64,000 bases of DNA from an uncultured Pseudobdellovibrionaceae bacterium (GCA_964400355.1 CAYNTO010000011.1:8992-72991); one strand, 5' to 3'. Positions 3,837-36,672 are shown, counted from the stretch's first letter. Notes: a model not told the origin generated them from the sequence alone. Numbers and translations: made by a program.

Positions 3837-4588
3837 TTGTTGGCTCCGAACAGCTCTGTTGTGTAAACCACGCCCACACCACTAGTTAGTAATGCGCAAA
3901 GCCTTGGATGTTTTTTATGATCGACCATTCCGCGTTTTGGTAGCACTACAAATGCCACATCATCGACTGTGAACTCAAACTTTTCGAGAGTTCTCCATTC
4001 ACGCTCTTCATAAATATCCTCAAAGTGTTCAGAGTTCTGACCTCGATTCATTTCATCAGTACGATCTAAAAAAGTCGGGATCTTGACATATTTATTCAGA
4101 AGAATTTCTTTACTTCTTTTCTTAAACTTCCAGTCGATTTTGTCAAATGTTGACAAGTCATCAATTCCTTTAATGGGCTGATATTTCACGGGTCTAAGAT
4201 CAGGCACTTTATCGACCAAGGTTTTTCTATGAAACCCAAGTCCTACATCCCCATACTTATTTAGATGCGATGCCAAGTGGTTCACTGTTATATCGCAGAA
4301 GCAAACAGCTCGTGGCTCTTTAACATTAAAAATTTTAAATTTGCTGCTATCAGGGGGGCCTAGAGGGTCGGGTGGGAAAATTAACTGACGGTCGTAATGC
4401 GGATTTTTGGGGATATAGGGTTCAAGATATCCGCCTCGCATATTCGGGTATAAATAAGATTCAAGTCTATCAATAATAGGGGAGCGGGATGGATCTCCAG
4501 ATGGATGCGGACCTTTAAAGTGCCACAGGATATTCGAAATGTGTCCAATATTTTTGTAATCTAATTTTGCCGTAATGTGAGTCACCAC
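3833..4588 (-). CDS. AbiGi / DUF2971-like protein (putative abortive-infection component)
   Basis: 251 aa, GTG start, weak RBS. The motif order 'ILWHFKG' ... 'AVCFCDITVNHLASHLNKYGDVGLGFHRK..LRPVKY' ... 'YEEREWR' resembles the AbiGi (PF10899)/DUF2971 families. Low GC. Confidence 0.55.
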   Translation of the reverse strand: MVTHITAKLDYKNIGHISNILWHFKGPHPSGDPSRSPIIDRLESYLYPNMRGGYLEPYIPKNPHYDRQLIFPPDPLGPPDSSKFKIFNVKEPRAVCFCDITVNHLASHLNKYGDVGLGFHRKTLVDKVPDLRPVKYQPIKGIDDLSTFDKIDWKFKKRSKEILLNKYVKIPTFLDRTDEMNRGQNSEHFEDIYEEREWRTLEKFEFTVDDVAFVVLPKRGMVDHKKHPRLCALLTSGVGVVYTTELFGANK

Positions 4589-8453: not shown

Positions 8454-8558
8454 CGGTGCTCTATTTTTGGATAGTCTGTGATTGTGAAAATCTGTTCACA
8501 AGCGCTTTCGGTAGCGGTTTTTAGTTGAGCGAGAGTGCCTCTAACAGTACAACAAGCT

Positions 8559-18358: not shown

Positions 18359-19198
18359 ATGGAAGAGTCCGTTAGCCAAATCGTCACAAAGTCCGAGCTA
18401 CTCTACGCTCAGATCGTAGAAGATGTGGTGAAATATGGTTTTAAAGTTTTGGCAGCAATTGTCATTTTGTTTGTGGGCTTTTGGGTTTCCAATCGGCTCG
18501 CAACACTGGCCAATGCTGCTCTCAGTAAGCAGAACTTTGACCCTACCATTCGCGTCTACCTTTCGCGCATATTGAGAATTCTTTTTAAAGTCATTGTGGT
18601 CATCACCGCAGCCGGAGTGGTCGGTGTGGAGACCACGTCGTTTGTTGCAGTTCTCGGTGCCGCAGGTCTTGCCGTCGGTTTGGCTCTTCAAGGAAGCCTA
18701 TCTAATTTTGCAGGCGGAGTGATGATTCTTATTCTAAGACCATTCCAGGTCGGCGATATGATTATCTCACAGGGTGAAGAGGGTGTCGTCACAGCCATTG
18801 ATGTGTTCTATACAACGTTAGTGAGAGCCGATAATCGCCGGGTGATTTTGCCCAATGGTCCACTGATTGGAAATGTGATTGTGAACAACACCGCCGAAAA
18901 CAAGCGCCGAGTTGAGGTGCAAGTAGGTATTGCCTATTCTTCCGACGTGGCTAAAGCCGAAGCGGTATTATTGAGCCTTGCGTATCAACACCCTAAGGTG
19001 CTCAAGGATCCCAGCCCCATGGTGGGGATCACGGCCTTTGGAGCAAGCTCCGTGGATTTGGTCTTCCGTGCATGGGCTCTTCCCGAAGATTACCCAAGCG
19101 TATATTTTGATCTTTACAAACAGACGAAGACGGCGCTCGATGGAGTTGGAATTTCTATTCCATTCCCTCAGCGCGAAGTGCGTATGCTCGACAAGTAA
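18359..19198 (+). CDS. MscS-family small-conductance mechanosensitive channel
   Basis: 279 aa with three N-terminal TMs. 'LSNFAGGVMILILRPFQVGDMI' and the following beta-domain are typical MscS features. Confidence 0.85.
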   Translation: MEESVSQIVTKSELLYAQIVEDVVKYGFKVLAAIVILFVGFWVSNRLATLANAALSKQNFDPTIRVYLSRILRILFKVIVVITAAGVVGVETTSFVAVLGAAGLAVGLALQGSLSNFAGGVMILILRPFQVGDMIISQGEEGVVTAIDVFYTTLVRADNRRVILPNGPLIGNVIVNNTAENKRRVEVQVGIAYSSDVAKAEAVLLSLAYQHPKVLKDPSPMVGITAFGASSVDLVFRAWALPEDYPSVYFDLYKQTKTALDGVGISIPFPQREVRMLDK

Positions 19199-20424
19199 TG
19201 AGCTGCCTGTGCTTGATGCCTTTTTCCAGTTTGCATGTGGCTCCAGATGGCAGTATTCGATTGTGCTCATCGAACACCAATATTTTATTTTCCGCGGGCC
19301 AGGTGAAATCGCTCGACGAGGCCTGGTCGCACCCATCGTACGTTAAAATTCGTAAAGCGATGCTCGAGGGCAAAAGGCCGAGTGCGTGCGTGAGCGCCTG
19401 TTACTCGCAGGAAGACGTGGGCTTGGTGAGCAAACGGAAAAAATTCAATGCGGCTAAGCTACCGGTCCGCGAGCGCGGCGCGATTTCGATGGCTACGGAT
19501 CACCCTCCCATTCGCTATCTAGATATCGCCTTCTCCAATGTGTGCAATTTAAAGTGCACCATGTGCACCAGCCATTATTCAACCGCGTGGCAAAAACCGG
19601 ATGCCGAGGCCGTGAGCGAGGGAATGACCTTTCGTCGCTCGGTGGCTCCTTATCCCGTGCTCGGAGACGAAATGCTCGAGGAGATCTTAGCACTCACACC
19701 GCAGCTTCTTGCCGTGTGGGTGAAGGGTGGTGAACCGCTCGTGGATGAAAAGTGCTTGAGCTACCTTAAAAAACTATCTGAACGCTCGGATCGCAACGAC
19801 TATCTGCATGTGTTTCTGCAGACCAACGGCACGCGCTGGAACCCCACCGTGCGCGATGCCATTCAAGGGTTAAGTCCAGAGATCGGGATCAGTATCGATG
19901 GGACTGAATCTACTTATGAATGGATTCGCGGGTTTCCGTTTGCAAAAATCGATGCAAACATTCGCGCTTTTGCCTCGGAGCCTGCAGTGGGCAAAGTGGT
20001 ATTGCAGTTCACATTGAGCGCCTACAACGTGTTCAACATCGAGGATATGATTCGCTATTTTCTAAATCTCAAGGCCTATTTTCCCAAAGTGGAAACGCTT
20101 TGTTTTGGTGGAATTGTTCGCCAGGAGTGGGGCAATGTGCATGCTGTGCCACTTGCTGTAAGGCAAACTGTCGCTGAGCGGCTGCGCGAAGTCACACGCG
20201 GAATAGAACACCATTTTGAAAACTTAGAGGGCTTGCTCAAAGTGCTCGACGCGCGGGAAGCGCGGGAAGCGTACTTTTATTCCACCGGCTACCAATGGTT
20301 ACAATTTTGTGAACGTATGCGCGGTCAGAAGCTTTCTGAAATAGATCCGCGGTTTGCAAATATTTTCCCAGAGCACACACCCGCACTCACAGCGCCGCAC
20401 ACTTCGGGCTGTAACCTAGAGTAA
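19198..20424 (+). CDS. radical SAM protein with N-terminal Cys-rich (twitch/SPASM-like) domain
   Basis: The CX3CX2C motif 'CNLKCTMC' follows 'YLDIAFSNV'. The N-terminus 'CLMPFSSLHVAPDGSIRLCSS...SLDEAWSHP...C..AC' looks like a SPASM/twitch module placed before the core. ATG 19198 overlaps the mscS stop (TAATG). Confidence 0.75.
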   Translation: MSCLCLMPFSSLHVAPDGSIRLCSSNTNILFSAGQVKSLDEAWSHPSYVKIRKAMLEGKRPSACVSACYSQEDVGLVSKRKKFNAAKLPVRERGAISMATDHPPIRYLDIAFSNVCNLKCTMCTSHYSTAWQKPDAEAVSEGMTFRRSVAPYPVLGDEMLEEILALTPQLLAVWVKGGEPLVDEKCLSYLKKLSERSDRNDYLHVFLQTNGTRWNPTVRDAIQGLSPEIGISIDGTESTYEWIRGFPFAKIDANIRAFASEPAVGKVVLQFTLSAYNVFNIEDMIRYFLNLKAYFPKVETLCFGGIVRQEWGNVHAVPLAVRQTVAERLREVTRGIEHHFENLEGLLKVLDAREAREAYFYSTGYQWLQFCERMRGQKLSEIDPRFANIFPEHTPALTAPHTSGCNLE

Positions 20425-22190: not shown

Positions 22191-23951
22191 TTACCAGCCG
22201 CAGGTTTGACCTTTGTTTTGGTCCTTTAACCACGCCTCCAATGGTGCAAAGTATTCGCGAATGGCGCTTGCATCCATCTCGCGTTTTCCGGTGGCCGCCT
22301 CAAGCGCGTCGGGCCAGGGCTTGCTGATCCCCATCTGCATCATCTTCCAAAGTTTTTCGCCAGCGGCCTTGTTGTTGTAAATGGAACACTCGTGAAGTGG
22401 CCCTTTATAGCCTGCGGTCTCGCAAAGAGCGCGGTGAAACTGAAACTGGAGTATGTGCGCGATAAAATATCGGGAGTAAGGAACAAAACTTGGAACATGG
22501 TACTTGGAGCCCGCATCAAACGCGTCGTTCGGGCGCGGTGTTGGAGGAACGAGCCCCTGATATTGTTTTACCATGTCCCACCAAGCCGTGTTGTAGTTTT
22601 CAGGTTGAATACGACCATCGAAGACCTGCCAACGGTATTTGTCTGTCATTAAACCAAACGGCAAAAACGCTATTTTTTGGAGAGCCATCTGTAAAAGATA
22701 ATGAACGTCCGCATCGATCGGCTTGTCTTTGCTGGTTAAAAGTTTGATGTCCTGGAGGTATTTGCGGGTGATGGACAATTGAACAGTGTCGCCCAAAGCT
22801 TCGTGGAACCCATCGTTGGCACTGCCTTGAAACAGCATGGGCTTGTCCTTGTAGGCGAGGTAGTAATAAATGTGGCCCAGTTCGTGATGGATAGTTCTAA
22901 AGTTGTCTTCGTCGATGAGGATGCACATCTTGATGCGCACATCATCTTTTAGATCCACGTGCCAAGCGCTGGCGTGACAAACCACATCGCGGTCCCGGGG
23001 CTTGTCGAAGAGAGATTTTTCGTAGAACGATTTTGGAAGTTGCGGCATCCCCAGGGAGACGAAAAAGTTTTCCGCTGTTTTTGTCATTTTCTTAGAATCA
23101 TACTTGGCCTTTTTGAGCAGACCCGTAATATCGAGAGATTTTTTAGGATTCACGCCCACGATGTCGCTGATGTTTTCCCAGGACTGTCCCCACATGTTCC
23201 CCACCAAATGTGCGGGAATGGCGCCCGATTTGGGCACAACGTTGTCACCGTATCTTTTGTTGAGGCGTGCGCGCACGTAACAGTGCAGCTGTTCATAGAA
23301 CGGACGCACTTCTGTCCACAAGCGATCGAGATCTTTTTCGAACGCCGCTTCGGGCATATCATATTTGTTTTTCCAAAAATCAGCGAGGTGCTTGTAGCCC
23401 AACTCTTTGGAGCCTTGGTTGGCCAGCTCCACGACTTTTTGATACTTGGGTTTCATGGGAACGGAGATGGATTTCCAGCCTTCCCATGCATCTTGCAGAT
23501 CTTTCGGGCTGCGCGATTTGGCGAGAACGTCCTCAAGGTCTAAAAGATCGCGGCACTTGTTGCCTTTGCAGTACTTACCGCTGCCATACATGCTCTCCAT
23601 CTCGGCTTTGAGTTTGGTCATCTCTTCGTTCTTGGCCGCATCTTTTGGTGCCGGCAGGTTTAAAAAACCCATGAGCAAATAAAGCTGGCGTTTTTCCTCA
23701 TCGGTTTTGCCTTTGTACCTTTTTGATTCCAATGCGAGCTGGGTTCCCAGTGCGCCAAAGCGGGCGTTGGCATCGGAGGCGAGAATCGTCGTGTCCTCAG
23801 TGATAAAGTTTGTCTGCACCCACTCAGCGCGTTGAACGCCCACGATCTCTTTGGCGAGAACGGAGTTGGTGTCGGTGAGAAATGTCGCCGTGCTCTTAGC
23901 TTGAGCAATAGATGACACAATTAGTAGCAGAGTAAAAACGCTGTAATTCAT
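22191..23951 (-). CDS. M2-family zinc metallopeptidase (peptidyl-dipeptidase A / angiotensin-converting-enzyme homologue), secreted
   Basis: 'HHELGHIYY' (HEXXH) plus 'GFHEALGD' (third ligand), as in ACE. ATG 23951 follows a GGAGG RBS and gives the signal peptide MNYSVFTLLLIVSSIAQA. Confidence 0.85.
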   Translation of the reverse strand: MNYSVFTLLLIVSSIAQAKSTATFLTDTNSVLAKEIVGVQRAEWVQTNFITEDTTILASDANARFGALGTQLALESKRYKGKTDEEKRQLYLLMGFLNLPAPKDAAKNEEMTKLKAEMESMYGSGKYCKGNKCRDLLDLEDVLAKSRSPKDLQDAWEGWKSISVPMKPKYQKVVELANQGSKELGYKHLADFWKNKYDMPEAAFEKDLDRLWTEVRPFYEQLHCYVRARLNKRYGDNVVPKSGAIPAHLVGNMWGQSWENISDIVGVNPKKSLDITGLLKKAKYDSKKMTKTAENFFVSLGMPQLPKSFYEKSLFDKPRDRDVVCHASAWHVDLKDDVRIKMCILIDEDNFRTIHHELGHIYYYLAYKDKPMLFQGSANDGFHEALGDTVQLSITRKYLQDIKLLTSKDKPIDADVHYLLQMALQKIAFLPFGLMTDKYRWQVFDGRIQPENYNTAWWDMVKQYQGLVPPTPRPNDAFDAGSKYHVPSFVPYSRYFIAHILQFQFHRALCETAGYKGPLHECSIYNNKAAGEKLWKMMQMGISKPWPDALEAATGKREMDASAIREYFAPLEAWLKDQNKGQTCGW

Positions 23952-24142
23952 GAATCCTCCGGAAAAACTCGAACCTACAAAGCGGCGCTCGGGCTGGCAA
24001 GAAAATACTATAAATTCTACCCACCGCACAGACGTGTCTCCTCCCTGTTTTTACACCTCCAGGAGATTCTCAATTACATCACCAAGGGGCTAACGTAAGA
24101 CAGGGGCATTTACGGGATGACCCCGAAAAATAAGGAGTTTTT

Positions 24143-25754: not shown

Positions 25755-25785
25755 AAAGGAGCAGTTTTCACTGCTCCTTTTTTTA
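25755..25785 (+). terminator. Rho-independent terminator
   Basis: Stem ggagcag (25758-25764) / ctgctcc (25771-25777), loop ttttca, then a 7-T run. Confidence 0.85.
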
Positions 25786-25931: not shown

Positions 25932-28556
25932 ATGTCGAACAAAGTATTGGGTTTCATTATTGGCAGTGTGGTAACGGCAAGTGTCGCGCTGTTTTCGGGC
26001 TATTATCTCCACCACAAAAAGAACAAGCAGTCTTATCAAAAAGCGAACACACTTCTCGATGTGACAGAGGCGCTGGATTATCGGTTTAACGATCTGAAGT
26101 ACAAAGTCACCACGTCTAGACACTCGGATGCGCCAGTGGTGCTCGTCGCAGTGGATGACGACTCCGTGCAGGAGATTGGGCGTTGGCCGTGGAGTCGCGA
26201 TTTGATCTCGAGCATTCTCGAGCAGGTTGTGGACAATGGTGCGAGCACAGTGGGCCTGGACGTGATTTTCTCAGAGCCCGAAAAAGCGTACCCGGAAAAT
26301 GATCAACGGCTAGCCGATGTGGTCACCAAGCACGGCGCAAAGATTGTGCTTGGAACGTTTAGTAACAATGAACTTCATTTTCAGCCCTATCAGGATTTTT
26401 GCGTTACCGAAGCTTTTTTAAAAACCGGTGGCGATCAAATTGTAAAGCTCGATGCCGCTCTGGTTGTTGAGGACGAAGGGGATGCGTTTGATGATGTGCC
26501 ATGGGATCAATTGTTCCAGCCTTTGTTCGAAACTGTGAGCGCCGATGTGCGCGCGAAGTATCTCAAAGAGCACAACAAAGCCGATGTATCGGAGTTGAGC
26601 ACTTTTCAAAACAATCACTTAAGGGCACTCACGCAAGGGGAATGGTTTAAGTATTGCTCGGTATGGCTCACGCCCGATGATTACCTGCTCAATGAGAATA
26701 AAGACAAGTTGATGGCGATTTATTCGGATATTTTTGTGGAAAAGCTCACTCGGCACGGCGAGAACACACACGCTAAAATCGACGAATTTAAAAAATCGGT
26801 TTTAAACTTTCCATCGCCGCAGTTCGGGGAATGGGTTCCTAACATCGCTGCAGTTCAGAATCCTGCGGTGATGACAGGTAGCTTTGTTGCCCACCTCGAT
26901 GTGGACGGATCGATTCGTCGTTACCCACTTTTCTACCGCTCGGGAAATCGCATCGGTACAAGTTACATTCCGTCTTTGGCGCTCAATATGTACCTATCGG
27001 CTAAAGGGTACCGAGCCGTGGCAGAAGTCAAACACTCCCGCGGCCATCGCGAGATCAAATCTTTTAAAATCTTCGATAGCGCCGATAACGTGATCCAAAG
27101 TTTGCCGGTAGATCCACAGGGCCGGGTGATGATCAAGTACTATGGGCCACAAAACACTTTGCCCTATGTGTCGGCCAAAGAGCTTCTCAACGATGATGAA
27201 ATGCTTACGGTGAATCAACGTGTGCTCAATACCGAGCACAACAAAGTGATAATCGAAAAGAAGCGAGTGTCCAAAAAGGACTATTTCAAAGGCCGCGCTG
27301 TACTTGTTGGAGCAACGTCTATGGGGATCTATGATCTCCGCAATACTCCTGTAGAGAATAACTATCCGGGACCAGAGATTCATCTGACCATGCTCGCTAA
27401 TCTTTTTGACCACAACTATCTAAAAGTTCTTCCCCGCGAAGAAGTGGTGCTCCCTTTTTTGATTTTGGGATTTGGTTTATTGCTGAGTGTGCTACTCGCC
27501 CAGCTAGAGGCGCTCAAGTCCATGATCTCGTTTGGCTTCTTTGTGGTGGCGGGCGGGGCTGCGGACTATGTTATTTTTAGTAAGTTTCAAATGATGTACT
27601 CGAGCTTCCTGGTGTTTTTACTAGTGGGTGTCCTGCACTCGGTAGCCATCGTGTTCAAATACATGTCCGAGGAAAAGAAAAAGCAGGCGCTCAAACGCAC
27701 CTTTTCCAAGTACGTTTCGCCAGCAGTGGTGGATGAGATTCTCAAGGCCGAGGAAAACTTAAAACTGGGTGGGAAAAAGCAGGAGATGACGGTGTTCTTC
27801 TCCGACGTGCGCGGGTTTACAAAGTTCTCTGAGAAGATGGATCCGGAAGTGCTCACGCAGTTTTTAAATGAGTACCTTACTCCTATGACGGAGGTGATCT
27901 TTAACAACAAGGGCACGCTCGACAAGTACATGGGCGATGGCTTGATGGCGTTTTTTGGCGCACCCATTCCGCACCAAGATCACGCCTACAGCGCGTGCAA
28001 GGCGGCGCTTCAGAGCCTTGAGCGTTTGCAGATTCTTAAAGAGGAATTCAAAAAGAAAAATTGGCCCGACATCGACATAGGAATCGGTATCAACACCGGC
28101 ATGATGAGTGTGGGAAATATGGGTTCACAGATTGTTCAGAGTTACACCGTGATTGGCGATGCAGTCAATTTAGGTGCGCGCCTTGAAGGAACAACCAAAC
28201 AGTACGGTGTGCGTATACTCGTGAGCGAGAGCACTTACACTGCGGCGAAGGAGCACTTTCTTTTCCGCGAAGTGGATCGCGTGCGCGTGGTCGGTAAGAA
28301 AGACCCAGTGGGGGCATTTGAACTATTGTGCGAAATCAAAGATTCCGGACGCGCCACTTATGTCGAGCGTTACCATGAGGCGTATCACACGTATATCCAG
28401 CGCGATTTTGTAAACGCGAAAGCACAGTTTGAAGTTTTAGAGAAAGAACAGCCTCTGGATCTGCTTGTGCGTATTTACAAGAACCGTTGCCAAGATTTTA
28501 TAAATGAGCCACCAGCAAGTGACTGGGATGGCGTGTTCGAAATGAAGGCGAAATAA
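25932..28556 (+). CDS. CHASE2 sensor domain-containing class III adenylate cyclase
   Basis: ATG 25932 within ORF 25815. Architecture: N-terminal TM, a large periplasmic region ('VDDDSVQEIGRWPWSRD' is CHASE2-like), 3 TMs, then a cyclase core ('VFFSDVRGFTKFSE', 'KYMGDGLMAFFGAP', 'TVIGDAVNLGARLE'). The Lys/Thr specificity pair suggests ATP as substrate. Confidence 0.85.
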   Translation: MSNKVLGFIIGSVVTASVALFSGYYLHHKKNKQSYQKANTLLDVTEALDYRFNDLKYKVTTSRHSDAPVVLVAVDDDSVQEIGRWPWSRDLISSILEQVVDNGASTVGLDVIFSEPEKAYPENDQRLADVVTKHGAKIVLGTFSNNELHFQPYQDFCVTEAFLKTGGDQIVKLDAALVVEDEGDAFDDVPWDQLFQPLFETVSADVRAKYLKEHNKADVSELSTFQNNHLRALTQGEWFKYCSVWLTPDDYLLNENKDKLMAIYSDIFVEKLTRHGENTHAKIDEFKKSVLNFPSPQFGEWVPNIAAVQNPAVMTGSFVAHLDVDGSIRRYPLFYRSGNRIGTSYIPSLALNMYLSAKGYRAVAEVKHSRGHREIKSFKIFDSADNVIQSLPVDPQGRVMIKYYGPQNTLPYVSAKELLNDDEMLTVNQRVLNTEHNKVIIEKKRVSKKDYFKGRAVLVGATSMGIYDLRNTPVENNYPGPEIHLTMLANLFDHNYLKVLPREEVVLPFLILGFGLLLSVLLAQLEALKSMISFGFFVVAGGAADYVIFSKFQMMYSSFLVFLLVGVLHSVAIVFKYMSEEKKKQALKRTFSKYVSPAVVDEILKAEENLKLGGKKQEMTVFFSDVRGFTKFSEKMDPEVLTQFLNEYLTPMTEVIFNNKGTLDKYMGDGLMAFFGAPIPHQDHAYSACKAALQSLERLQILKEEFKKKNWPDIDIGIGINTGMMSVGNMGSQIVQSYTVIGDAVNLGARLEGTTKQYGVRILVSESTYTAAKEHFLFREVDRVRVVGKKDPVGAFELLCEIKDSGRATYVERYHEAYHTYIQRDFVNAKAQFEVLEKEQPLDLLVRIYKNRCQDFINEPPASDWDGVFEMKAK

Positions 28557-28658
28557 TATGACATTACCGACTCGTTTCCAGACAAAAGCCGACTCAGAAC
28601 GACACAGTCGTCATGTTTCCACGTTTAAAGGCGATAAGAACCTAGGAGCAAATCACCC

Positions 28659-30494
28659 ATGTCTATAGTATTTAGAATCGTAATCATCTCCTGTCTTTTA
28701 ACTGCGGCCTGTACGCGCGCGAAGAGTGATAAAGCGGTGGTTGTGTTTGAGGTGCCGGCCGTGGCAGAGGTCCAAAAACCTGCACTATCTCTGCTTGCCG
28801 TAAACGAGATGGACCTGCGTTGGGACGACGGTTCTGTTTTGTACGACGATTGGTTCGAACAAACGCCAACGGGCTTTGACGGCGTCGGGAGCTATCCTAT
28901 CAACTGCTACGCCGTTATGGTTGGCGGTGCGGAGGCGGAGTTTAATAAAAATTATTGCGGGGCGAGTGACGAGAATGATGAGATCACCACAAAGCTTTTC
29001 TCGTTTGGTCCGTGGGCTGGAGCAGTATTGGCGACGGGCACCAGCACTCAGCTCGAACTGGAGCTTCTAGCCGGCACTAGCCGCACATTTTATTTGATTG
29101 GCTTTCACGCTCAAGATCCCACCGTTTGCGTGGATTTCCGCAAGCAAAATTTCGACAAGATCGAAATGACCAAGCCGATGATCATCGGCGAAGTCACCGG
29201 TGTAAAACTCGAGGCGGGTGCCACGCAGACTATTCGCATTCCGCGCCAGATCAATTACAATCGTACTTTCGATGACTGTAAGTTTAATGATGACTCCGAG
29301 GAAGGCTCCGATACTGTGTATTCCCCAAAATATATCGTTATGGAGCGCGCTCATTTTATTGAGCCTGGCGATGACTATATCACCGGTGATTTGGACCCGG
29401 GCAATCCCAACGAAAATGATTGCACGCCGTTTACCTTTCGTGCTCTGGATAAGCATGGGCGCGATGTGCCGGTGTTAGCGCCAACAACAGTTTCTGTAAA
29501 GTCCTGTGTCGGGACGTCTATGCCCAAATGTTACACTGGTAACGAGGCACAGCTCGCCGTAGCTGAAACGTACAATTCTTACGAGAATTGCATCGAAGAA
29601 AACGCCAGCGGAAAAGCCGCGCACTTTGTTATGCCTATAAATACCGAGCGCGCGACGCGATGGGTGCGTTCACCGGTAAAGCCGAGCGGAAACATGAACC
29701 ACCATGCGTTCTTTCGCGCTGAGAGCGTCGGTCTTCAATCGATTGCTCCCAAAGAGTACAAGGTGCGCATGAAAGGTTCCGAATCTATCTATAGGATTGA
29801 AGGTTCGAATAAGATATTCGAAGATAACTGCAATACCTATAAAATTGAGTCTTCGATGTATGGCTCTATAGCGGCAGATGATATTGATTTCTGGGAAGAC
29901 CCGGTCGTCGAAAAATGGAATGCCGCCAATAATACGTGGTCGATTCAGGCAGCAGCATTGTTTGAGGCATCGACCTGTACTGGTGGCCCGCCGGTAATGC
30001 CTAGTGTAACTTTCACAGAGTATAAAGTGGTCTATCTGAAAGTTCCTGAAGGCAAGTACCGTTTGCGTCAGCCCACTCAAGTAGGTACCGGAGATGATGG
30101 CGTTAAATATTTCAAATCTTTCGGGCGAAATTCTGTGCCAAAAAATTTAGCGCACGTCGGGCCAGCCATCACCGTTGAGCCAGGCAGTGCTGCGTGTAGC
30201 GGACCACACAAGATCAAGTTGGTGAACGCGCGTGGGGTTCCCGTAGTTAGCCTTCGCAATCGACAAATAAACTTGGGATTTAATGGCACGGCGGTTTCGT
30301 TTCATGCCACCGAAGGCACATGTGACTCTGGCACCGATCCGCTCAATAGTGTCACTCTGTTGCAAGGTGAACGCAATGTGCATTTTTACATTCGCTCGAC
30401 TACCGCCGGTGCGACGCATGTGCATGCACAAGATCAAAGCAATAACAATTTATCGTTACAATTTATGCATGAATTTGTTCATGGCGACTTCTAA
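28659..30494 (+). CDS. large hypothetical lipoprotein (611 aa)
   Basis: Lipobox 'LLTAACT' and an AGGAG RBS. It is Cys-containing and beta-rich, with no family recognised. Confidence 0.6.
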   Translation: MSIVFRIVIISCLLTAACTRAKSDKAVVVFEVPAVAEVQKPALSLLAVNEMDLRWDDGSVLYDDWFEQTPTGFDGVGSYPINCYAVMVGGAEAEFNKNYCGASDENDEITTKLFSFGPWAGAVLATGTSTQLELELLAGTSRTFYLIGFHAQDPTVCVDFRKQNFDKIEMTKPMIIGEVTGVKLEAGATQTIRIPRQINYNRTFDDCKFNDDSEEGSDTVYSPKYIVMERAHFIEPGDDYITGDLDPGNPNENDCTPFTFRALDKHGRDVPVLAPTTVSVKSCVGTSMPKCYTGNEAQLAVAETYNSYENCIEENASGKAAHFVMPINTERATRWVRSPVKPSGNMNHHAFFRAESVGLQSIAPKEYKVRMKGSESIYRIEGSNKIFEDNCNTYKIESSMYGSIAADDIDFWEDPVVEKWNAANNTWSIQAAALFEASTCTGGPPVMPSVTFTEYKVVYLKVPEGKYRLRQPTQVGTGDDGVKYFKSFGRNSVPKNLAHVGPAITVEPGSAACSGPHKIKLVNARGVPVVSLRNRQINLGFNGTAVSFHATEGTCDSGTDPLNSVTLLQGERNVHFYIRSTTAGATHVHAQDQSNNNLSLQFMHEFVHGDF

Positions 30495-30495
30495 C

Positions 30496-30519
30496 CTCAG
30501 AGCGAGCATCCGCTCTGAG
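30496..30519. terminator. bidirectional hairpin between convergent genes
   Basis: Perfect 9-bp stem ctcagagcg (30496-30504) / cgctctgag (30511-30519) with a 6-nt loop. It sits exactly between the stops at 30494 and 30528. No long T-run. Confidence 0.6.
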
Positions 30520-30527
30520 CAAGTCGT

Positions 30528-32138
30528 TTAAAAGAATCCGCTGGAATAGGAGATCATGGTCATCACCGTGATCTTGTCGAAATCGTAGAGATCGACAGAC
30601 GATGAATTGCGATAGTATTGGGCGTAGACGTTTAAATTCAAGTTGTTCTTTAGGCTGTATATTCCACCCAACGTAAATATCATTCCCGTGTCGTCGCGGT
30701 TGGTAGTGGATTTGCTGAAATCCTGTTTGATGTAATCAAATTTTACATAGGAGATGAGCTTAGCGCTCAAGGGATGCGTGGTACCCAGCGACAGCATCAA
30801 GCGGTCATAAAGACTATTAATGCCTTCCGCATCGTTGATAATGTAGTTCACGTCCACATTGAGTGTGCGTGTTCCAGTAGCGTTGAAGTGGCGACTGTTG
30901 GTGAGGGTAAGTCCATACTTTTGCGATGTTTGATCGTTTTCAGGTGTCGTCGTAAAGTGGAAAGTATCGTCGGCATAATCGAAGCGATAGGAATTGACCC
31001 ACTTCTCCCAAAAGCTTGTTGTGAGGTCGACACCCAAGGCGGCGGTGCTATAGACCTTGTCACGGCTCTGCTCATCGAGACTCATAAAAATATTGGAATA
31101 GGCGGGAACGATAGTGAGCATGCTAGGAGTATTGCGCATCAAAAAGCGGTACGAATAAGGGATGGCTATTTCGGCCTGTAGCGGGTCGGTACTTTGAATG
31201 GTGGCATTGCTATCAAATGAGGTGTCTACGCTGTACAGATCGGACGCAGTGAGGCGTGGAGTGAGGGAGTGTTGGATTTTGTGAATGGCCTTATACTCGA
31301 TCACCCCACCATAAAGAATACGGTATGCTTCAAGATCCAGGGCGGAATTGTTGTCGGTGATGTTGAGCACATTGCTATCGTACATCAGTCCCGCGAACAC
31401 CGAATAGGCAAAGCGTTTTTTACTCTCTTCCTCAAACCGTTGGAGCGCGAGTATGGATTCCAGCTGCTGCTCTGCCTTTTGATCCATAACTTTATCTTTG
31501 GTTGTATCGAGCACATACTGAAATGACTCACGGGCTTCGCTATATTGGGCATTCTGTTTGAGGAGAATTCCGCGATACATGGCCGCCGATGGTGATAGTT
31601 CTGGATCGTTTGCGGCCATCACTGAGCCGAATGTCTTGATGGCTGGATTGAGTTCGTTGAGTTTCATGTTGTTGAGAGCTTCGTAATAGGAAATTTCGGT
31701 GGCATCAATGCTTGTTCCGCGCACCATCTCGAGAAGAATCAATGAGCGTTGATGCTCGCCATTGCGGTAAAGACTAATTGCAAGTTCATAATAATACAAA
31801 TCGACGTAAGGGTTTAAGGAGATAGCTTTGGCATAGTACCGCTGTGCGAGGCGCACGTCTCCCGATTGAAAAAGCGAGCGCCCTTTTTTGTGGTACTGGG
31901 TTGCTTTGACTTTGTTTTTTTCTTGCAGTTCGGGAGTGAGAGCGTTGAATTTGTTCTGGTACGATTCGCGTTTCCCCAGTTCGCGCTCGAGTTCCGCCGT
32001 AAAGTTCAGTTTTCCTGAGCTTTGTGGTTCGATTTGAATGGCTCCCCGCATGGAGCGGGTAGCGGCGACAGGTTGGGATTGTGCAATAGCGGATTGAGCG
32101 AGAATCAAACAACCAACTACAAGTCCAAAATTCTTCAT
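30528..32138 (-). CDS. outer-membrane protein: N-terminal TPR repeats + C-terminal beta-barrel
   Basis: Signal peptide 'LILAQSAIAQ'. TPR-like repeats ('AQRYYAKAISLNPYVDLYYYELAISLYRNGEHQRS...'). The C-terminal ~300 aa has alternating beta patterns and ends '...ISYSSGFF' (terminal Phe). Confidence 0.65.
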   Translation of the reverse strand: MKNFGLVVGCLILAQSAIAQSQPVAATRSMRGAIQIEPQSSGKLNFTAELERELGKRESYQNKFNALTPELQEKNKVKATQYHKKGRSLFQSGDVRLAQRYYAKAISLNPYVDLYYYELAISLYRNGEHQRSLILLEMVRGTSIDATEISYYEALNNMKLNELNPAIKTFGSVMAANDPELSPSAAMYRGILLKQNAQYSEARESFQYVLDTTKDKVMDQKAEQQLESILALQRFEEESKKRFAYSVFAGLMYDSNVLNITDNNSALDLEAYRILYGGVIEYKAIHKIQHSLTPRLTASDLYSVDTSFDSNATIQSTDPLQAEIAIPYSYRFLMRNTPSMLTIVPAYSNIFMSLDEQSRDKVYSTAALGVDLTTSFWEKWVNSYRFDYADDTFHFTTTPENDQTSQKYGLTLTNSRHFNATGTRTLNVDVNYIINDAEGINSLYDRLMLSLGTTHPLSAKLISYVKFDYIKQDFSKSTTNRDDTGMIFTLGGIYSLKNNLNLNVYAQYYRNSSSVDLYDFDKITVMTMISYSSGFF

Positions 32139-32155
32139 CTTTCGAGCGTCCTTGT

Positions 32156-33118
32156 TTATCGATTGCTACCAGCGTTGGGAGTGGTCGTTTCTGGTTTGAT
32201 GATCACTCGTGTTTTATCGGTCTTGTCGCGAATAGCATCGTTGGTGCGCGTGTTTGGACCTTTGGGAATAAAGGCGCCTGGATTAGCAACGGGCATTGGT
32301 GCTGGTGCGCCAGTTGTAGGCACTTGTTTTTCGATATTTTCGGGCTTCATATCCGTGTTGTCGCCAATACGAGTTGTACCCTTTGTGCCCTCATTGGCAG
32401 GAGTGGAAGAGCTTTCCGACTTCTGACCGTTCGACGACGATGCGCTACCAGAGCCACTTCCAGTAGTTCCACTCGCTGCGGATCCATCACCCACACGCGA
32501 TTCGCTGTCGAGAGTTTTCACTTCCTCTGGCGGCATTAGCTTTGGTGCCTCAACGGCGCGATCGGGAGCGGCCGTCGTCTTTTGGTTTTTGTTGACTAGA
32601 GTGATAGCGCCCGTTGCCACATTGTTTTTGAGCGCTTGGAACGCTACCGTGCCTTCCATGGTTTTTACTTCAGTTGTATTGGTTTTTATATTGTGATCCA
32701 CGATAAAATCTGTTCCGCGCACGCCGGCCACTGCGGTGGGTGTCTTTACCTCGTACTTGTTGGATTCGCCGTAGGCGCCTTTAACTTCGTTGCGCACCTT
32801 TCCTTTGCTGAGAGAAAGTTCTACGTTTTTTGCGCCATCCTTATCCGAATACTTCGCAATCTTTACTTTAGAGTCCGGAGAAATGTGCACAACGCTGCGA
32901 TCGGACATAACAATTTTCGCACGGCCGTCGGGTCCAGTCTCTACAGAGCTATCCTGAAAGACTTTTTCGCGTACTTTTGCGGCAGATTTTTTCCCATTGG
33001 TTTCAATTTTAACGTCGCCTTTTACGGCCATAAAAATTCCAAATGAGTCTGCAGCGAAACTAGAGGTGGTTGCACTGCAGATGATTCCGACGAGCAAAAA
33101 GGCACGAATGGATAGCAT
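32156..33118 (-). CDS. FecR-domain protein with Ser/Gly/Thr-rich C-terminal tail, secreted
   Basis: 'GDVKIETNGKK...V.TGPDGRAKIVMSDRSVVHISPDSKVKI....TPTAVAGVRGTDFIV' is a FecR (PF04773)-type domain. It lies 17 nt upstream of the TPR-barrel gene. Confidence 0.7.
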   Translation of the reverse strand: MLSIRAFLLVGIICSATTSSFAADSFGIFMAVKGDVKIETNGKKSAAKVREKVFQDSSVETGPDGRAKIVMSDRSVVHISPDSKVKIAKYSDKDGAKNVELSLSKGKVRNEVKGAYGESNKYEVKTPTAVAGVRGTDFIVDHNIKTNTTEVKTMEGTVAFQALKNNVATGAITLVNKNQKTTAAPDRAVEAPKLMPPEEVKTLDSESRVGDGSAASGTTGSGSGSASSSNGQKSESSSTPANEGTKGTTRIGDNTDMKPENIEKQVPTTGAPAPMPVANPGAFIPKGPNTRTNDAIRDKTDKTRVIIKPETTTPNAGSNR

Positions 33119-33293
33119 AGTATTTCCTTTGTTTGTTATCTTTAAAAATTAGCATAATGTGAGTGTATGTATATGTCTTTCTCGGACCTGGACGAATGTC
33201 CACGTTAGTGCCAGACCTCACCTAGTCTCACTGAACCTAAAAGTAGATTACATGGCATCTTTAGATATAATGATCTTGAAAATAGGAGGGTGG

Positions 33294-34892
33294 ATGAGAA
33301 CACAATCAATAGGTCGCTGTGGACACACGTACAGTCGCAAGAATCCGATTCACGTAGTGGGCATAGTCATTTTGCTGGTCTTTTCCGTTACGAGCTGTTC
33401 TCACAGTCAGCCCCGAGCCACCCGGCAACCCACCCAGACCACCGACAAAGAGCGCACCGCCTCTTTGACCGAGTTTCGCAACTGCGAAAGTGCCAAAGCG
33501 CGCTTTCCCAGTATGCTCGACGACGACACAGTGGAGTGCACTGAGGATTATCTTCTCTATGAGTCCAACGTAAAAACAAAATTAAAACTTTCGAATTTGC
33601 GTATTGGAAGTTTTAACGTCATTCGTATAGGCCAATCGCAAGTACGCTTTAAAAGAAACGATCTAGTCGCAGACATCATCAACCAGTGGGATCTGGTAAA
33701 CGTTGTGGAAATTATGACCTCAGGTAAAGATCTCCTGGCTCATAACGAAAAAATCGATCGTTTGGCAGAGTCCACCGGGACCAAAGATCGCGGCGATATT
33801 GAAGCCTCCTATCAAATGCCAAAATACTTAGTCATACTTCAGGAATTGCGCAAACTGGATCCTTCATGGTCCCTCATTATGGCTCCCTCGGGAACAGGCG
33901 AGACGACAGCCTCCTATGAGTATTCTGGGTTTTTCTACCGCTATGGCTTTGTTGAAAACGCGGAGACGTCTTTTTGCGGCGACAAGCGAGGTTGCCTCAC
34001 GCCTATATCCAGAGAGAATTATGAAAATTTGGTTTCGCGCAGCCCCTTTGTTGCCCACTTTAAAGTCGGCAAACTCAAATTCAACGCTGCGGGCCTCCAT
34101 CTGCGCTTTCGTGCACCGGCAGAAGACTGTGCTACAGCTAGCGGGGATTCGAAGAAAGGTCAAAAAAAATGTGTGGACTACAGTGCCGCTGAGCAAAAGC
34201 TCGTAAAAGACTATCTCGAGGTGGCAGGTCGAATCAAAGTCAATAAGGAAGACGCCCGCTACATGGAGCTTGCCGTTGCTGAGCGGGAACTCAGAAAGTC
34301 GGAAGAACCAATTCTGTTGATGGGAGATTTCAATTTGGAGTTCAATGACAGAACCCGAAAGCTGTGGAACTTTGCCGTCGGTCACGACAACGTTTTTGTT
34401 CGAGAGAAGACAAGCATCAGTGCTCAGAACGGCCTTGCCAATGAATACGATCACTTCGTTTTTGTGCCTGAGAAAACACTTGCCAAGTGCAAAACAGAAA
34501 CGGCCAAGGCGTTTAATTTTATGTTAGATCTGGTAACTCCAAAGACCAGTGATCCTGATCTCAAAGACCTCGAGTCATTCTTGGTGTTGCGCAAGAATCG
34601 CACAAAGGCACTGGAGGAGTATCAAATAAGTTTGCGTGAACAGCTATCGGCAACAACCTGTTCAAAAACAGACTGCGAAATGGCGCCGCTATATGATCCT
34701 GTTGCCGCCGCAAATTTGGTGTGTCTCTATGAGCGCAATGTACTTGGCAATGAGTCTAAAAAATGCGTAGCTGAAGGGGAAGCAGAAGACGAAGAAGACG
34801 CGCCTACCCCAGGTAAAAAACCCGTTTATAAAGTTTTCCACGAAATCATTAGTGATCACATTCCCATCGAAATGGAATGCGCTATCAATTAG
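33294..34892 (+). CDS. endonuclease/exonuclease/phosphatase (EEP, DNase I-like) family lipoprotein
   Basis: ATG 33294 follows an AGGAGGG RBS. Lipobox 'SVTSCSH'. EEP motifs are 'LRIGSFNV', 'LMGDFNLEF' and C-terminal 'ISDHIPIEM'. It is longer than the minimal EEP fold. Confidence 0.7.
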   Translation: MRTQSIGRCGHTYSRKNPIHVVGIVILLVFSVTSCSHSQPRATRQPTQTTDKERTASLTEFRNCESAKARFPSMLDDDTVECTEDYLLYESNVKTKLKLSNLRIGSFNVIRIGQSQVRFKRNDLVADIINQWDLVNVVEIMTSGKDLLAHNEKIDRLAESTGTKDRGDIEASYQMPKYLVILQELRKLDPSWSLIMAPSGTGETTASYEYSGFFYRYGFVENAETSFCGDKRGCLTPISRENYENLVSRSPFVAHFKVGKLKFNAAGLHLRFRAPAEDCATASGDSKKGQKKCVDYSAAEQKLVKDYLEVAGRIKVNKEDARYMELAVAERELRKSEEPILLMGDFNLEFNDRTRKLWNFAVGHDNVFVREKTSISAQNGLANEYDHFVFVPEKTLAKCKTETAKAFNFMLDLVTPKTSDPDLKDLESFLVLRKNRTKALEEYQISLREQLSATTCSKTDCEMAPLYDPVAAANLVCLYERNVLGNESKKCVAEGEAEDEEDAPTPGKKPVYKVFHEIISDHIPIEMECAIN

Positions 34893-35599
34893 TGATCTAA
34901 AAATGAATTCAGCGCGCGTTTGCTCTCACTGGAGAGTTCCGTGAAGTGCAGTCCCATGCCTCGCGGATAGGTGCCTTTGGCCTCATCTAAGCGCACGATA
35001 ATTGCCTCACAGCGCACTTTGCGGAGTGTATCGAGCGTGATGCTCACGTTCACGCGCTCGCCCATTTTGGGCAGTTGCGCCCAGGCAATATCGTCGAGCT
35101 GAATAAACAGCCCACTTTTCGAAACATCATAACTTTTTGAATTGAAAGATGAACTCACAAAAGGATTTACAGTGACATGAGCCACATGCTGCAAACGAGG
35201 CGCGCGCTGCCACCAGTGATGGCGCTTGTCCGAAAGTAACTTTTGGCTGGTGCGCGTGTAAAGAGGCACAAACACAACTGGGAAACAGAGCGAGCCCATC
35301 ATGGTTTCCACGACGGAAAAGTTATTGCCGTAGGCGGCCACAAGATAATTGTTCCAAAAGACCATAAACATGGAGGCCGGCATAAGTATTTTTGCCATGC
35401 GATGGCCTCGGTAAATGGCTAAAGCGGTTGTTGTGATCAATAAGATCGTGACCCAGTTAGGAAACGTGATGTGTTGATGAATGCGGTAAAAGTCTGTAAA
35501 GGGGAGATCCAGCAAAACGGCAACTTGGAAATAAAACGAAATGGCGATTCCTAACAGGATGAGTGGAATAAAATTAAACGCCAGTGGCTTTTTAATCAT
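34889..35599 (-). CDS. membrane protein (4 TM) with C-terminal PilZ domain
   Basis: 'DVSKSGLFIQLD' (D.S..G) and C-terminal 'GMGLHFTELSSESKRALNSFL' are PilZ-like. The N-terminal arginine motif is imperfect ('QRAPR'). Its start overlaps the upstream stop (ATGA). Confidence 0.65.
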   Translation of the reverse strand: MIKKPLAFNFIPLILLGIAISFYFQVAVLLDLPFTDFYRIHQHITFPNWVTILLITTTALAIYRGHRMAKILMPASMFMVFWNNYLVAAYGNNFSVVETMMGSLCFPVVFVPLYTRTSQKLLSDKRHHWWQRAPRLQHVAHVTVNPFVSSSFNSKSYDVSKSGLFIQLDDIAWAQLPKMGERVNVSITLDTLRKVRCEAIIVRLDEAKGTYPRGMGLHFTELSSESKRALNSFLDH

Positions 35600-36672
35600 G
35601 AGCGCGGTCCCTCCGAAAAATCGTTGCAGTAGCTGTAAATCATATTGAGGTAGTATTGAATATTTTTAAGTTCGGCGTCGTTCATCCACTTTTTGGGATT
35701 TTTGAGCAGTACGCGCTTCACCCGCTCAGGCCCGCTATTGTAACTGGCGAGCACAACATTGGTCAGTTGTTCGTCGGTTGTGATGTTTGCGTCTTTGAGC
35801 AACTGTTTGTTGTCTTTAGAACCCCAGAAGCGAACGATATACTTGAGATAGCTGGCTCCGCCCTTCAGTGAAAGGTCGGGTTGTAAGCGCCAATCTGAAT
35901 CTGAATTTAAATCACCCGCTACTATTTGCGCCTTTACCTCAGTAACAGGCACGGAGCTCAGATCGCGGCGCGGCCACTGGGCGGTTTTTTTCTCGATCTG
36001 TTGGAGTGCGATATCTGTGATTTGCGTAAGGCCTAATGCTTTTGCAGAACTCACAGCGAGGGGATTAAAACCCGATTCCATAGCAACCAGGCCTGCAATG
36101 AGGCTTGCATTGAGGCGCTCTTCACGGCCCGACAGATTGACCATTCCCAAGAACTCAGGCGGTGTCTCAAACCCGTGGAGCCCTCGCGCTGGCAGTGTTT
36201 TGTAAATGGAGCAAGAAGGCTTAGTGAGTTTGTAGGAGTAAAAATGGAGATCTTCCTGGTACAAAAAGGCAATTTCATGGAGTTGTTTGGCGGATAGTTT
36301 TAAGCCAGAGAACTCGACACGCATGAGTTTTTCATTGGGAAACATTTTCACGCGACTGTTTTTTACAAAAAGCTCGGTAAGGTCTGTCGAGTTGTAGATA
36401 AGGCGAAAATTGCGAATGTCTGGAGCTTTTGTCTTTCCGATCACATCCAACCGCAGGGTGTCTTCTTTGTGATAGAACTGTTGGCGCGGAAAAAATTGAA
36501 CCGTGTAATGCTTGTCCGATTCTACAGAGATCAACGAGAGATCCGACGGTGCTTTGAGCAACGGCGTAAACTGGTGGGCGGCACCAAAGGGGCTCGTCGG
36601 TCCAGCACAGGCGGTTGCGCCCAAATAGGCAGCAATGAGAATAAAAAACTTCCGTGCTTTTACTCGAGTCAT
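35596..36672 (-). CDS. lytic transglycosylase (SLT domain) lipoprotein
   Basis: Lipobox 'LGATACAG'. SLT motifs are 'LVAMESGFNP', 'ALGLTQIT' and 'ASYNSGPERV'. Confidence 0.8.
   Translation of the reverse strand: MTRVKARKFFILIAAYLGATACAGPTSPFGAAHQFTPLLKAPSDLSLISVESDKHYTVQFFPRQQFYHKEDTLRLDVIGKTKAPDIRNFRLIYNSTDLTELFVKNSRVKMFPNEKLMRVEFSGLKLSAKQLHEIAFLYQEDLHFYSYKLTKPSCSIYKTLPARGLHGFETPPEFLGMVNLSGREERLNASLIAGLVAMESGFNPLAVSSAKALGLTQITDIALQQIEKKTAQWPRRDLSSVPVTEVKAQIVAGDLNSDSDWRLQPDLSLKGGASYLKYIVRFWGSKDNKQLLKDANITTDEQLTNVVLASYNSGPERVKRVLLKNPKKWMNDAELKNIQYYLNMIYSYCNDFSEGPRS

Follow-up and report, generated by a model that had tools for sequence, protein, structure and literature searches.

A conserved CHASE2 cyclase, FecR and TPR-barrel gene cluster in Bdellovibrionota: a likely trans-envelope sensory module with predicted cAMP output

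Results

Gene content of the cluster

A cluster of four genes was analysed at positions 25932-33118 of a 64,000-nt stretch of DNA (hereafter, the window) from an uncultured Pseudobdellovibrionaceae bacterium (GCA_964400355.1 CAYNTO010000011.1:8992-72991). An initial annotation of the sequence had proposed that these genes, encoding a CHASE2-domain class III cyclase, a lipoprotein, a TPR plus beta-barrel outer-membrane protein and a secreted FecR-domain protein, form an envelope-spanning cyclic AMP (cAMP) signalling module. The four open reading frames (ORFs; 874, 611, 536 and 320 aa) were found at the coordinates and on the strands given there, and the CHASE2, class III cyclase, FecR and TPR plus barrel domains were all recovered by Pfam. 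The features of the cluster are as follows:

25755..25780, plus strand: terminator-like hairpin, 11-bp stem followed by a T run
25932..28556, plus strand: CHASE2 adenylate cyclase, 874 aa (Pfam, hydropathy, motifs, homologues, public gene call)
26001..27443, plus strand: predicted periplasmic CHASE2 sensor domain, ~aa 24-504, ~480 aa (Pfam, hydropathy)
27777..28304, plus strand: class III cyclase catalytic domain (Pfam and motifs)
28659..30494, plus strand: Cys-rich lipoprotein, 611 aa, lipobox LTAAC|T, no Pfam family
30496..30520, no strand: hairpin with a 9-bp stem between two convergent transcription units, read from the sequence
30528..32138, minus strand: outer-membrane TPR-barrel protein, 536 aa (Pfam, AlphaFold2 (AF2) model, Foldseek)
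32156..33118, minus strand: secreted FecR-domain protein, 320 aa (Pfam, NCBIfam, motif analysis)
32192..32242, minus strand: conserved C-terminal peptide NDAIRDKTDKTRVIIKP of the FecR-domain protein, aa 293-309 (motif and tail analysis)

The FecR and TPR-barrel genes, separated by a 17-nt gap, form a two-gene operon that converges on the cyclase and lipoprotein genes. On the other side of the cluster, the putative terminator at 25755-25780 sets the cyclase transcription unit apart from the two genes upstream. A promoter scan returned matches no more numerous than those in shuffled sequence.

Linkage of FecR, TPR-barrel and CHASE2 cyclase genes

The conservation of this arrangement was evaluated by scanning 185,579 species genomes with a CHASE2 alignment. 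The best 80 loci, from many phyla, were kept, and FecR genes were sought in 83 distinct loci. Individual loci are labelled L001, L002 and so on. A FecR gene followed by an adjacent TPR-barrel gene was found in every Bdellovibrionota-type locus with enough flanking sequence (the window, L001 from Bdellovibrio strain HCB337, L005, L006, L009, L011, L012, L086, L087 and L088). This pair lies beside the CHASE2 cyclase gene in a convergent orientation in the window, L001, L005, L006, L009, L011 and L012, a colinear one in L086 and a divergent one in L087, and the genes flanking the whole cluster vary between loci. Outside this group, a TPR-barrel gene of the same family lies at most three genes from both a FecR gene and a cyclase gene in L014, L051 and L072. 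The linkage of FecR, TPR-barrel and CHASE2 cyclase genes is real and defines a conserved module.

FecR genes were detected with a profile hidden Markov model (HMM) iterated on the survey loci, whose scores were strictly bimodal, none falling between 1e-25 and 10. They flank 25 of the 83 CHASE2 cyclase loci, in Alphaproteobacteria, Burkholderiales, Desulfovibrio, Hydrogenedentota and others, always within 6 kb and distributed as follows:

Less than 1 kb from the CHASE2 gene: 12 FecR genes in 152 kb of sequence
1-3 kb: 5 FecR genes in 269 kb of sequence
3-6 kb: 8 FecR genes in 335 kb of sequence
6-10 kb: 0 FecR genes in 311 kb of sequence

The initial annotation had stated that CHASE2 proteins recur next to FecR-domain proteins and a barrel component in several phyla, and had suggested counting their co-occurrence. 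The recurrence is borne out by this count and by published clusters (PMC9239204, PMC5192318, PMC5498481), but many loci do not show it. Of the components, FecR and CHASE2 are the ones paired widely; the barrel gene is found in a subset of loci only.

The loci lacking a FecR gene have a different neighbourhood. FecR was not among the 25 most recurrent of the 108 Pfam families detected in 102 immediate neighbours of 57 FecR-negative loci, and Peptidase_M48 accounted for 24 of those 102 neighbours, mostly in Treponema, Verrucomicrobiota and the PVC group (the loci of this type include L019, L020, L024, L026-L028, L032, L033, L037, L039, L044-L047, L049, L053, L054, L057 and L073). By position, the peptidase gene encodes a protein of ~300 aa and sits directly upstream of the cyclase gene, abutting it on the same strand. 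Since FecR-negative loci often carry an M48 gene in this position, CHASE2 cyclases have at least two alternative conserved partners, FecR and M48. No description of an M48 peptidase as a partner of CHASE2 cyclases was found in the literature searched.

The CHASE2 cyclase

The cyclase ORF is open from 25815, and the ATG at 25932 yields the 874-aa form that is also seen in its homologues and in the public gene call. Pfam detected both CHASE2 (3.9e-45) and Guanylate_cyc (1.5e-24), and homologues share 44-79% identity, most of them being ~870-885 aa long and some reaching 923 aa. The names under which the homologues are recorded, Bdellovibrio or Pseudobdellovibrionaceae, place the window in the Bdellovibrionota. 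Hydropathy analysis revealed hydrophobic segments at aa 5-23, 505-523, 531-549 and 557-575. The predicted topology therefore comprises a first transmembrane helix (TM1, aa 5-23), a periplasmic CHASE2 domain, three further helices (TM2-4, aa 505-575) and a cytoplasmic cyclase domain; CHASE2 enclosed between one N-terminal helix and three later ones is the arrangement of the CHASE2 transmembrane sensors (PF05226). Compared with alphaproteobacterial CHASE2 domains, that of the window and its Bdellovibrionota relatives is unusually long, with two big insertions of ~150 and ~30 aa that may form an extra subdomain.

The Lys/Thr specificity motifs highlighted in the initial annotation, DKYMGDG and YTVIGD, are present, and the set of class III residues is complete (874-aa numbering): D625/D669 for metal, K665/T739 for substrate and N746/R750 for the transition state. 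The motifs holding these catalytic residues are kept in 118-120 of 120 homologues. The Lys/Thr pair predicts a class IIIb adenylate cyclase with ATP as the substrate, by the established rules for class III enzymes, and the output is almost certainly cAMP.

The FecR-domain protein

The 320-aa protein matches Pfam FecR at 3.7e-19. It starts with a Sec signal peptide (aa 1-22), followed by the FecR domain (~aa 25-200) and a disordered linker of ~100 aa rich in Ser, Gly, Thr and Pro. The signal peptide is cleavable, and neither an anti-sigma domain nor a membrane anchor was found in the sequence, as expected of a soluble, secreted protein. The motif GVRGT(D/Q)F of the FecR domain is invariant (120 of 120 homologues) and contains, at G135-T136 in the window protein, the Gly-Thr dipeptide that serves as the self-cleavage site in cell-surface-signalling anti-sigma factors. 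Behind the disordered linker, FecR proteins carry the conserved C-terminal peptide NDAIRDKTDKTKVIIKP, a candidate motif for docking to CHASE2 or into the TPR groove. NCBIfam reported similarity to Lsa33 and LipL45, and a search of PDB sequences returned no significant relative.

FecR domains also occur at the N-terminus of much larger proteins near CHASE2 cyclase genes. In the alphaproteobacterial locus L048 (1783-6567), a giant RTX/cadherin/Ig-repeat protein of 1594 aa with an N-terminal FecR domain adjoins the cyclase; a large ORF at L078 (1-6636), near the CHASE2 cyclase and also with an N-terminal FecR domain, is probably of the same giant type. In L051 (5018-9739), a 1573-aa RTX protein lies beside a separate FecR gene and a Slam-like barrel gene.

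The TPR-barrel protein and its likeness to Slam

The 536-aa protein has a signal peptide, TPR_2/TPR_16 repeats, a C-terminal BBP2_2 barrel match (1.5e-6) and a C-terminal Phe, and its family comprises 471 representatives. An AF2 model built with 60 family members (predicted local distance difference test score, pLDDT, 91.5) consists of a helical TPR domain at aa 46-239 (nt 31422-32003) and a barrel of ~14 strands and ~300 aa at aa 243-536 (nt 30531-31412). Foldseek related the model to the TPR-plus-barrel exporters BcsC and PelBC and to the 14-stranded barrels OmpG (target-normalized TM-score, TMt, 0.67), CymA and FadL, and a sequence profile search of the PDB with the family returned generic TPR proteins alone. 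The barrel is clearly not FecA-like.

A periplasmic N-terminal TPR domain joined to a 14-stranded C-terminal barrel is the architecture of Slam, the translocon of type XI secretion (PMC5449769), and the modelled window protein shares it, as it shares the adjacent lipoprotein gene. At the sequence level, however, Pfam SlipAM (DUF560, PF04575) gave no match at E <= 10 for the window protein or for its L001 and L011 orthologues, and TPR_Slam matched the window protein at E = 0.018. Relatives of the same family in other loci do pass the SlipAM cut-off of 22 bits, namely those of L072 (Burkholderiales, 44 bits) and L051 (Bauldia, 27 bits), and that of L014 shows a weak, sub-threshold TPR_Slam match. 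An HMM made of Bdellovibrionota sequences alone matches these distant proteins at 6e-8 to 4e-5, and gives a collinear but weak match (16.8 bits) to a canonical Slam encoded beside a TbpB-like gene; hhalign of the window family against that single Slam was likewise weak (21% probability). On the strength of the model, we regard the barrel as Slam-like in architecture, its homology to Slam being distant and unproven. The window also differs from type XI systems in its conserved partners, a FecR-domain protein and a cyclase, and an association of Slam with either one is not mentioned in the type XI secretion literature searched.

A hypervariable lipoprotein gene

The 611-aa product was described in the initial annotation as a lipoprotein, in agreement with its lipobox LTAAC|T, which recurs in all its positional counterparts in related loci (530-1223 aa, Cys-rich). 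The protein contains 14 Cys and is predicted to be all-beta. Five homologues were found among 5.8 billion proteins, and identity to the closest relative is 37%, compared with 79% for the cyclase, 74% for the FecR protein and 64% for the TPR-barrel protein. The gene is missing in L006 and L011 and is shifted by a 9-kb insert in L007. The lipoprotein gene is therefore accessory and fast-evolving, and not a fixed fourth member of the cluster. Fast divergence is typical of surface-exposed proteins and would fit a Slam cargo. The AF2 model, built from five sequences, is poor (pLDDT 54); Foldseek searches with it returned alpha-2-macroglobulin, FdeC and other multi-domain beta-sandwich proteins, all with TM < 0.2, which suggests tandem beta-sandwich domains and nothing beyond that. 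No TbpB-like or 8-stranded C-terminal barrel signature was detected with Pfam or in this low-confidence model.

Comparison with NsrA-CyaK

The outer-membrane receptor NsrA and the CHASE2 cyclase CyaK are both needed by Sinorhizobium meliloti for the perception of ribosomal protein uL2, which is effective as a signal whether it comes from plants, yeast or E. coli (PMC7529298, PMC13001267). On an S. meliloti pSymB-type replicon (locus L002), cyaK (SMb20776) starts at the end of a gene whose 1197-aa product has a FecR domain at aa 66-160, TPR at aa 417-531 and a C-terminal barrel region annotated by NCBI as a TonB-dependent receptor. The same fusion is seen in all its homologues from Ensifer, Rhizobium and Neorhizobium, each of which is followed by a CHASE2 cyclase gene. 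The 1197-aa protein is presumably NsrA, in view of its position, its length and the extent of its barrel, the last two agreeing with what is published for NsrA ('barrel portion aa 600-1200'). In the same locus (2153-2698), a 181-aa PycTM-domain protein, of a family of cyclic-nucleotide-activated membrane proteins that act as Pycsar effectors, is encoded divergently from the nsrA-like gene.

In the window, as in L002 and the rhizobial homologues, a CHASE2 class III cyclase gene thus lies next to FecR, TPR and outer-membrane barrel coding sequence in the same domain order, except that the single polypeptide of ~1200 aa is replaced by two genes encoding 320 and 536 aa. Comparison with the 1197-aa protein by BLAST gave weak matches for the window FecR (E = 0.003) and TPR (E = 0.03) sequences and none for the barrel. 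With hhalign, the window TPR domain, up to the TPR-barrel junction, aligned with NsrA residues 452-623 of the family alignment (58% probability, E = 1e-4), and more weakly with the single NsrA sequence (11% probability); the family comparison supports homology of the TPR regions. Given the same domains in the same order, the window FecR and TPR-barrel genes look like a split version of an NsrA-like co-receptor. A fused FecR-TPR-barrel chain exists in S. meliloti, and by the logic of gene fusion and fission the two window proteins would therefore work as one unit. In both the NsrA-type and the giant-protein architectures, the FecR domain is presumably the periplasmic, N-terminal end of a protein that reaches the outer membrane or the surface, a position that would fit a role as the part contacting CHASE2.

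Further differences separate the two systems. The window barrel is half the size of that of NsrA, the cluster has an additional, variable lipoprotein gene, its genes converge and are not colinear, and the CHASE2 domain carries its two large insertions; the host belongs to the Bdellovibrionota and is no plant symbiont. In S. meliloti, the route from a surface signal to cAMP synthesis has been shown genetically and Clr is the cAMP effector. Among the window genes scanned (~3-45 kb), none was Clr-like or encoded a cyclic-nucleotide-binding protein or a phosphodiesterase.

Discussion

A probable trans-envelope module

Taken together, our results make it probable that the cluster encodes a trans-envelope sensory module with cAMP as its output. 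Domain content, topology, catalytic residues, linkage and the existence of a fused form come from sequence and structure prediction; the contacts between the proteins, the direction of regulation and the ligand are what we infer in the scheme that follows. The inner-membrane cyclase would present its 480-aa CHASE2 domain to the periplasm, with three more helices leading to the cyclase domain, and the convergent operon would supply an outer-membrane co-receptor made up of the soluble periplasmic FecR protein and the TPR-barrel protein. A cell-surface event, at the barrel loops or at the neighbouring variable lipoprotein, would change the state of the periplasmic TPR/FecR assembly, whereupon the FecR domain would bind or release the CHASE2 domain. 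The change would then cross the membrane helices and switch the cyclase dimer, raising cAMP.

The envelope-spanning cAMP module proposed in the initial annotation is thereby retained, on the grounds of the conserved linkage and of the S. meliloti FecR-TPR-barrel protein encoded upstream of cyaK, but the analogy with FecA-FecR on which it had been built is not. What the two systems have in common is a Pfam FecR domain with its Gly-Thr dipeptide and the broad concept of signal transfer from the outer membrane into the periplasm. The window has a second-messenger output instead of a sigma factor, a barrel of ~300 aa and ~14 strands joined to TPR, and a soluble FecR protein with no anti-sigma domain and no anchor; neither a TonB-dependent transducer nor an ECF (extracytoplasmic function) sigma factor is encoded nearby.

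Several observations weigh against the proposed module, or against its likeness to NsrA-CyaK. Some 70% of the CHASE2 cyclases in the survey lack a neighbouring FecR gene, and the FecR/TPR-barrel pair of L088 has no CHASE2 gene inside the available flanks. The survey sample is biased, having been drawn with one peptide pattern and limited to the best 80 matches, which are almost only cyclases, with naive ORF calling. In S. meliloti, the plant signal is perceived even without the FecR-domain protein SMc02177, which is encoded near cyaD1 (PMC5498481; compare L090). As for NsrA, its barrel (~600 aa) and that of the window (~300 aa) have no similarity detectable by BLAST, HMM or hhalign, and the iterated barrel HMM never picked up the NsrA barrel, so that the case for a split NsrA is carried by FecR, TPR and gene position, with no contribution from the barrel. 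The identity of the 1197-aa protein itself draws on position, on length and on the abstract of the 2018 NsrA paper, in which nsrA is reportedly defined as the gene immediately upstream of cyaK.

Alternative explanations

The main rival explanation, which partly overlaps with the sensory module, is that the TPR-barrel protein is primarily a Slam-like translocon that brings the lipoprotein or the FecR protein to the surface, the cyclase sensing or regulating export or using the cargo as an antenna. The Slam architecture speaks for it, as do the L072 and L051 relatives that pass SlipAM, the sub-threshold TPR_Slam match in L014, the recognition of these relatives by the Bdellovibrionota HMM and the collinear 16.8 bits to canonical Slam. 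A lipobox gene stands beside the barrel gene, as is the case for about half of Slams, and evolves much faster than its neighbours; moreover, relatives of the FecR protein in Leptospira carry annotations as surface adhesins. Nevertheless, the window protein has no SlipAM match even at E = 10 (TPR_Slam, E = 0.018), hhalign to canonical Slam reaches just 21% probability, and the lipoprotein lacks a TbpB-like or 8-stranded barrel signature, although its model is poor. The FecR/barrel pair persists in L006 and L011, where the lipoprotein gene is absent. A barrel gene is lacking altogether at many FecR-CHASE2 pairs, an argument for a periplasmic location of the FecR protein, and in the fused form the FecR domain sits on the periplasmic TPR end. 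On balance, we consider a primary role in translocation unlikely, if a serious contender. An alternative in which the barrel is a passive or specific channel for a small ligand, which a soluble, ligand-binding FecR protein would present to CHASE2 much as LuxP does to LuxQ or TorT to TorS, would account for the 14-stranded channels OmpG, CymA and FadL being the closest solved barrels and for the FecR genes that adjoin CHASE2 genes in loci lacking a barrel gene. It leaves the periplasmic TPR domain and the FecR-TPR-barrel fusion unexplained, the sole known signal of a related system is a protein, uL2, and we know of no binding pocket in FecR domains; this makes it an improbable reading.

Two further possibilities receive very little weight. 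That the TPR-barrel protein is a porin for exopolysaccharide export, akin to BcsC, PgaA or EpsL and with no tie to the cyclase, is suggested by the top Foldseek matches (BcsC, PelBC) and by weak C-terminal matches to NCBIfam EpsL and Pfam BBP2_2. No polysaccharide synthase gene was found in the cluster, the barrel has ~14 strands and not 16-18, and it is invariably paired with FecR and usually lies beside the cyclase, so we view export of this kind as highly improbable. Classical FecI-FecR-FecA surface signalling, with the FecR protein as an anti-sigma factor, has the Pfam FecR domain as its one point in favour, and its chance of being correct is close to nil: the N-terminal cytoplasmic anti-sigma domain and the membrane helix are replaced by a cleavable signal peptide, and the neighbours scanned include neither an ECF sigma factor nor a TonB-dependent transducer that carries a signalling domain. 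The absence of these defining parts refutes it as an account of the cluster.

A more speculative combination, to which we assign a rather small probability, is that a Slam-like protein has been recruited to signalling, the lipoprotein serving as an exchangeable surface antenna whose engagement is relayed through TPR and FecR to the CHASE2 cyclase. The conserved Gly-Thr site, or docking of the conserved FecR C-terminal peptide, may be involved. In a predator, such a module could sense prey contact or prey lysate; the related NsrA/CyaK responds to uL2, which is present in bacterial extracts. If this proposal were true, the pairing with M48 peptidases would suggest that CHASE2 senses periplasmic protein or proteolysis events in general.

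Related systems and significance

The initial annotation had stated that the ligand and logic of such modules were not established, which overlooks both the work on NsrA, CyaK and uL2 and a published cluster in Campylobacterota. In the latter, genes for a CHASE2 cyclase, a phosphodiesterase, a FecR-domain protein and a TPR protein are grouped and have been proposed to act in a single pathway (Mo et al. 2022, PMC9239204). By family, not by sequence, three of these four are represented in the window (CHASE2 cyclase, FecR and TPR protein), which has no phosphodiesterase gene in or beside the cluster; the report (PMC9239204) contains no structural or mechanistic analysis. In the Burkholderia 'BiofilmReg' operon and the Pseudomonas aeruginosa PA4035-like pair, a LysM-FecR protein is coupled with a CHASE2 histidine kinase (PMC5192318). 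As in the window, the gene of a secreted FecR-domain protein directly adjoins that of a CHASE2 sensor, but signalling runs through a histidine kinase and a response regulator, LysM is present on the FecR protein and there is no barrel gene. The kind of system is already known, NsrA-CyaK having been studied experimentally and the Campylobacterota cluster having been described. No account of the split architecture, or of a Slam-like barrel with a hypervariable lipoprotein neighbour, was found in the literature searched.

CHASE2 is among the commonest extracytoplasmic sensor domains of bacteria, and the cue it senses and the mechanism by which it does so are poorly understood; to our knowledge, Sinorhizobium NsrA/CyaK is the only CHASE2 system with genetic support for sensing. 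The Bdellovibrionota encode the FecR-TPR-barrel logic as separate, tractable proteins, and several other phyla have FecR-only pairs, which amounts to a natural dissection of the receptor. As read from gene content, this dissection supports the FecR domain as the probable periplasmic partner of CHASE2. The combination of a Slam-like barrel with a fast-evolving lipoprotein suggests a link between surface-lipoprotein display and second-messenger signalling, one that is not described in the type XI secretion literature searched. In Bdellovibrio, Bd1971 is a cAMP-activated cyclic di-GMP (c-di-GMP) phosphodiesterase (PMC6717892), and the module may therefore be an entry point for surface cues into the predatory life cycle.

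Other genes of the window

Directly past the FecR gene, positions 33159-36672 encode an MnuA-like membrane nuclease (weak Exo_endo_phos match), a PilZ-domain protein, of a c-di-GMP receptor family, and an SLT lytic transglycosylase; conservation of this trio beside the cluster was not seen in L001. On the other side, ~1.9 kb upstream of the cluster and on the opposite strand, a full-length, angiotensin-converting-enzyme-like peptidase M2 is encoded at 22191-24029 (Pfam E = 2e-213). An AbiGi-like protein, of an abortive infection antitoxin family, is encoded at 3833-4588, inside a dip in GC content at 2-6 kb (0.44-0.46, versus ~0.49 elsewhere in the window); together they may mark a small acquired defence island. 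At 8535-12754, the genes for an Omp85-family protein of 584 aa and, next to it, a TamB-like protein of 833 aa probably encode a TamA/TamB translocation-and-assembly pair. Finally, the gene of a radical SAM/SPASM-domain protein (19198-20424) adjoins that of an MscS-type mechanosensitive channel (18359-19198).

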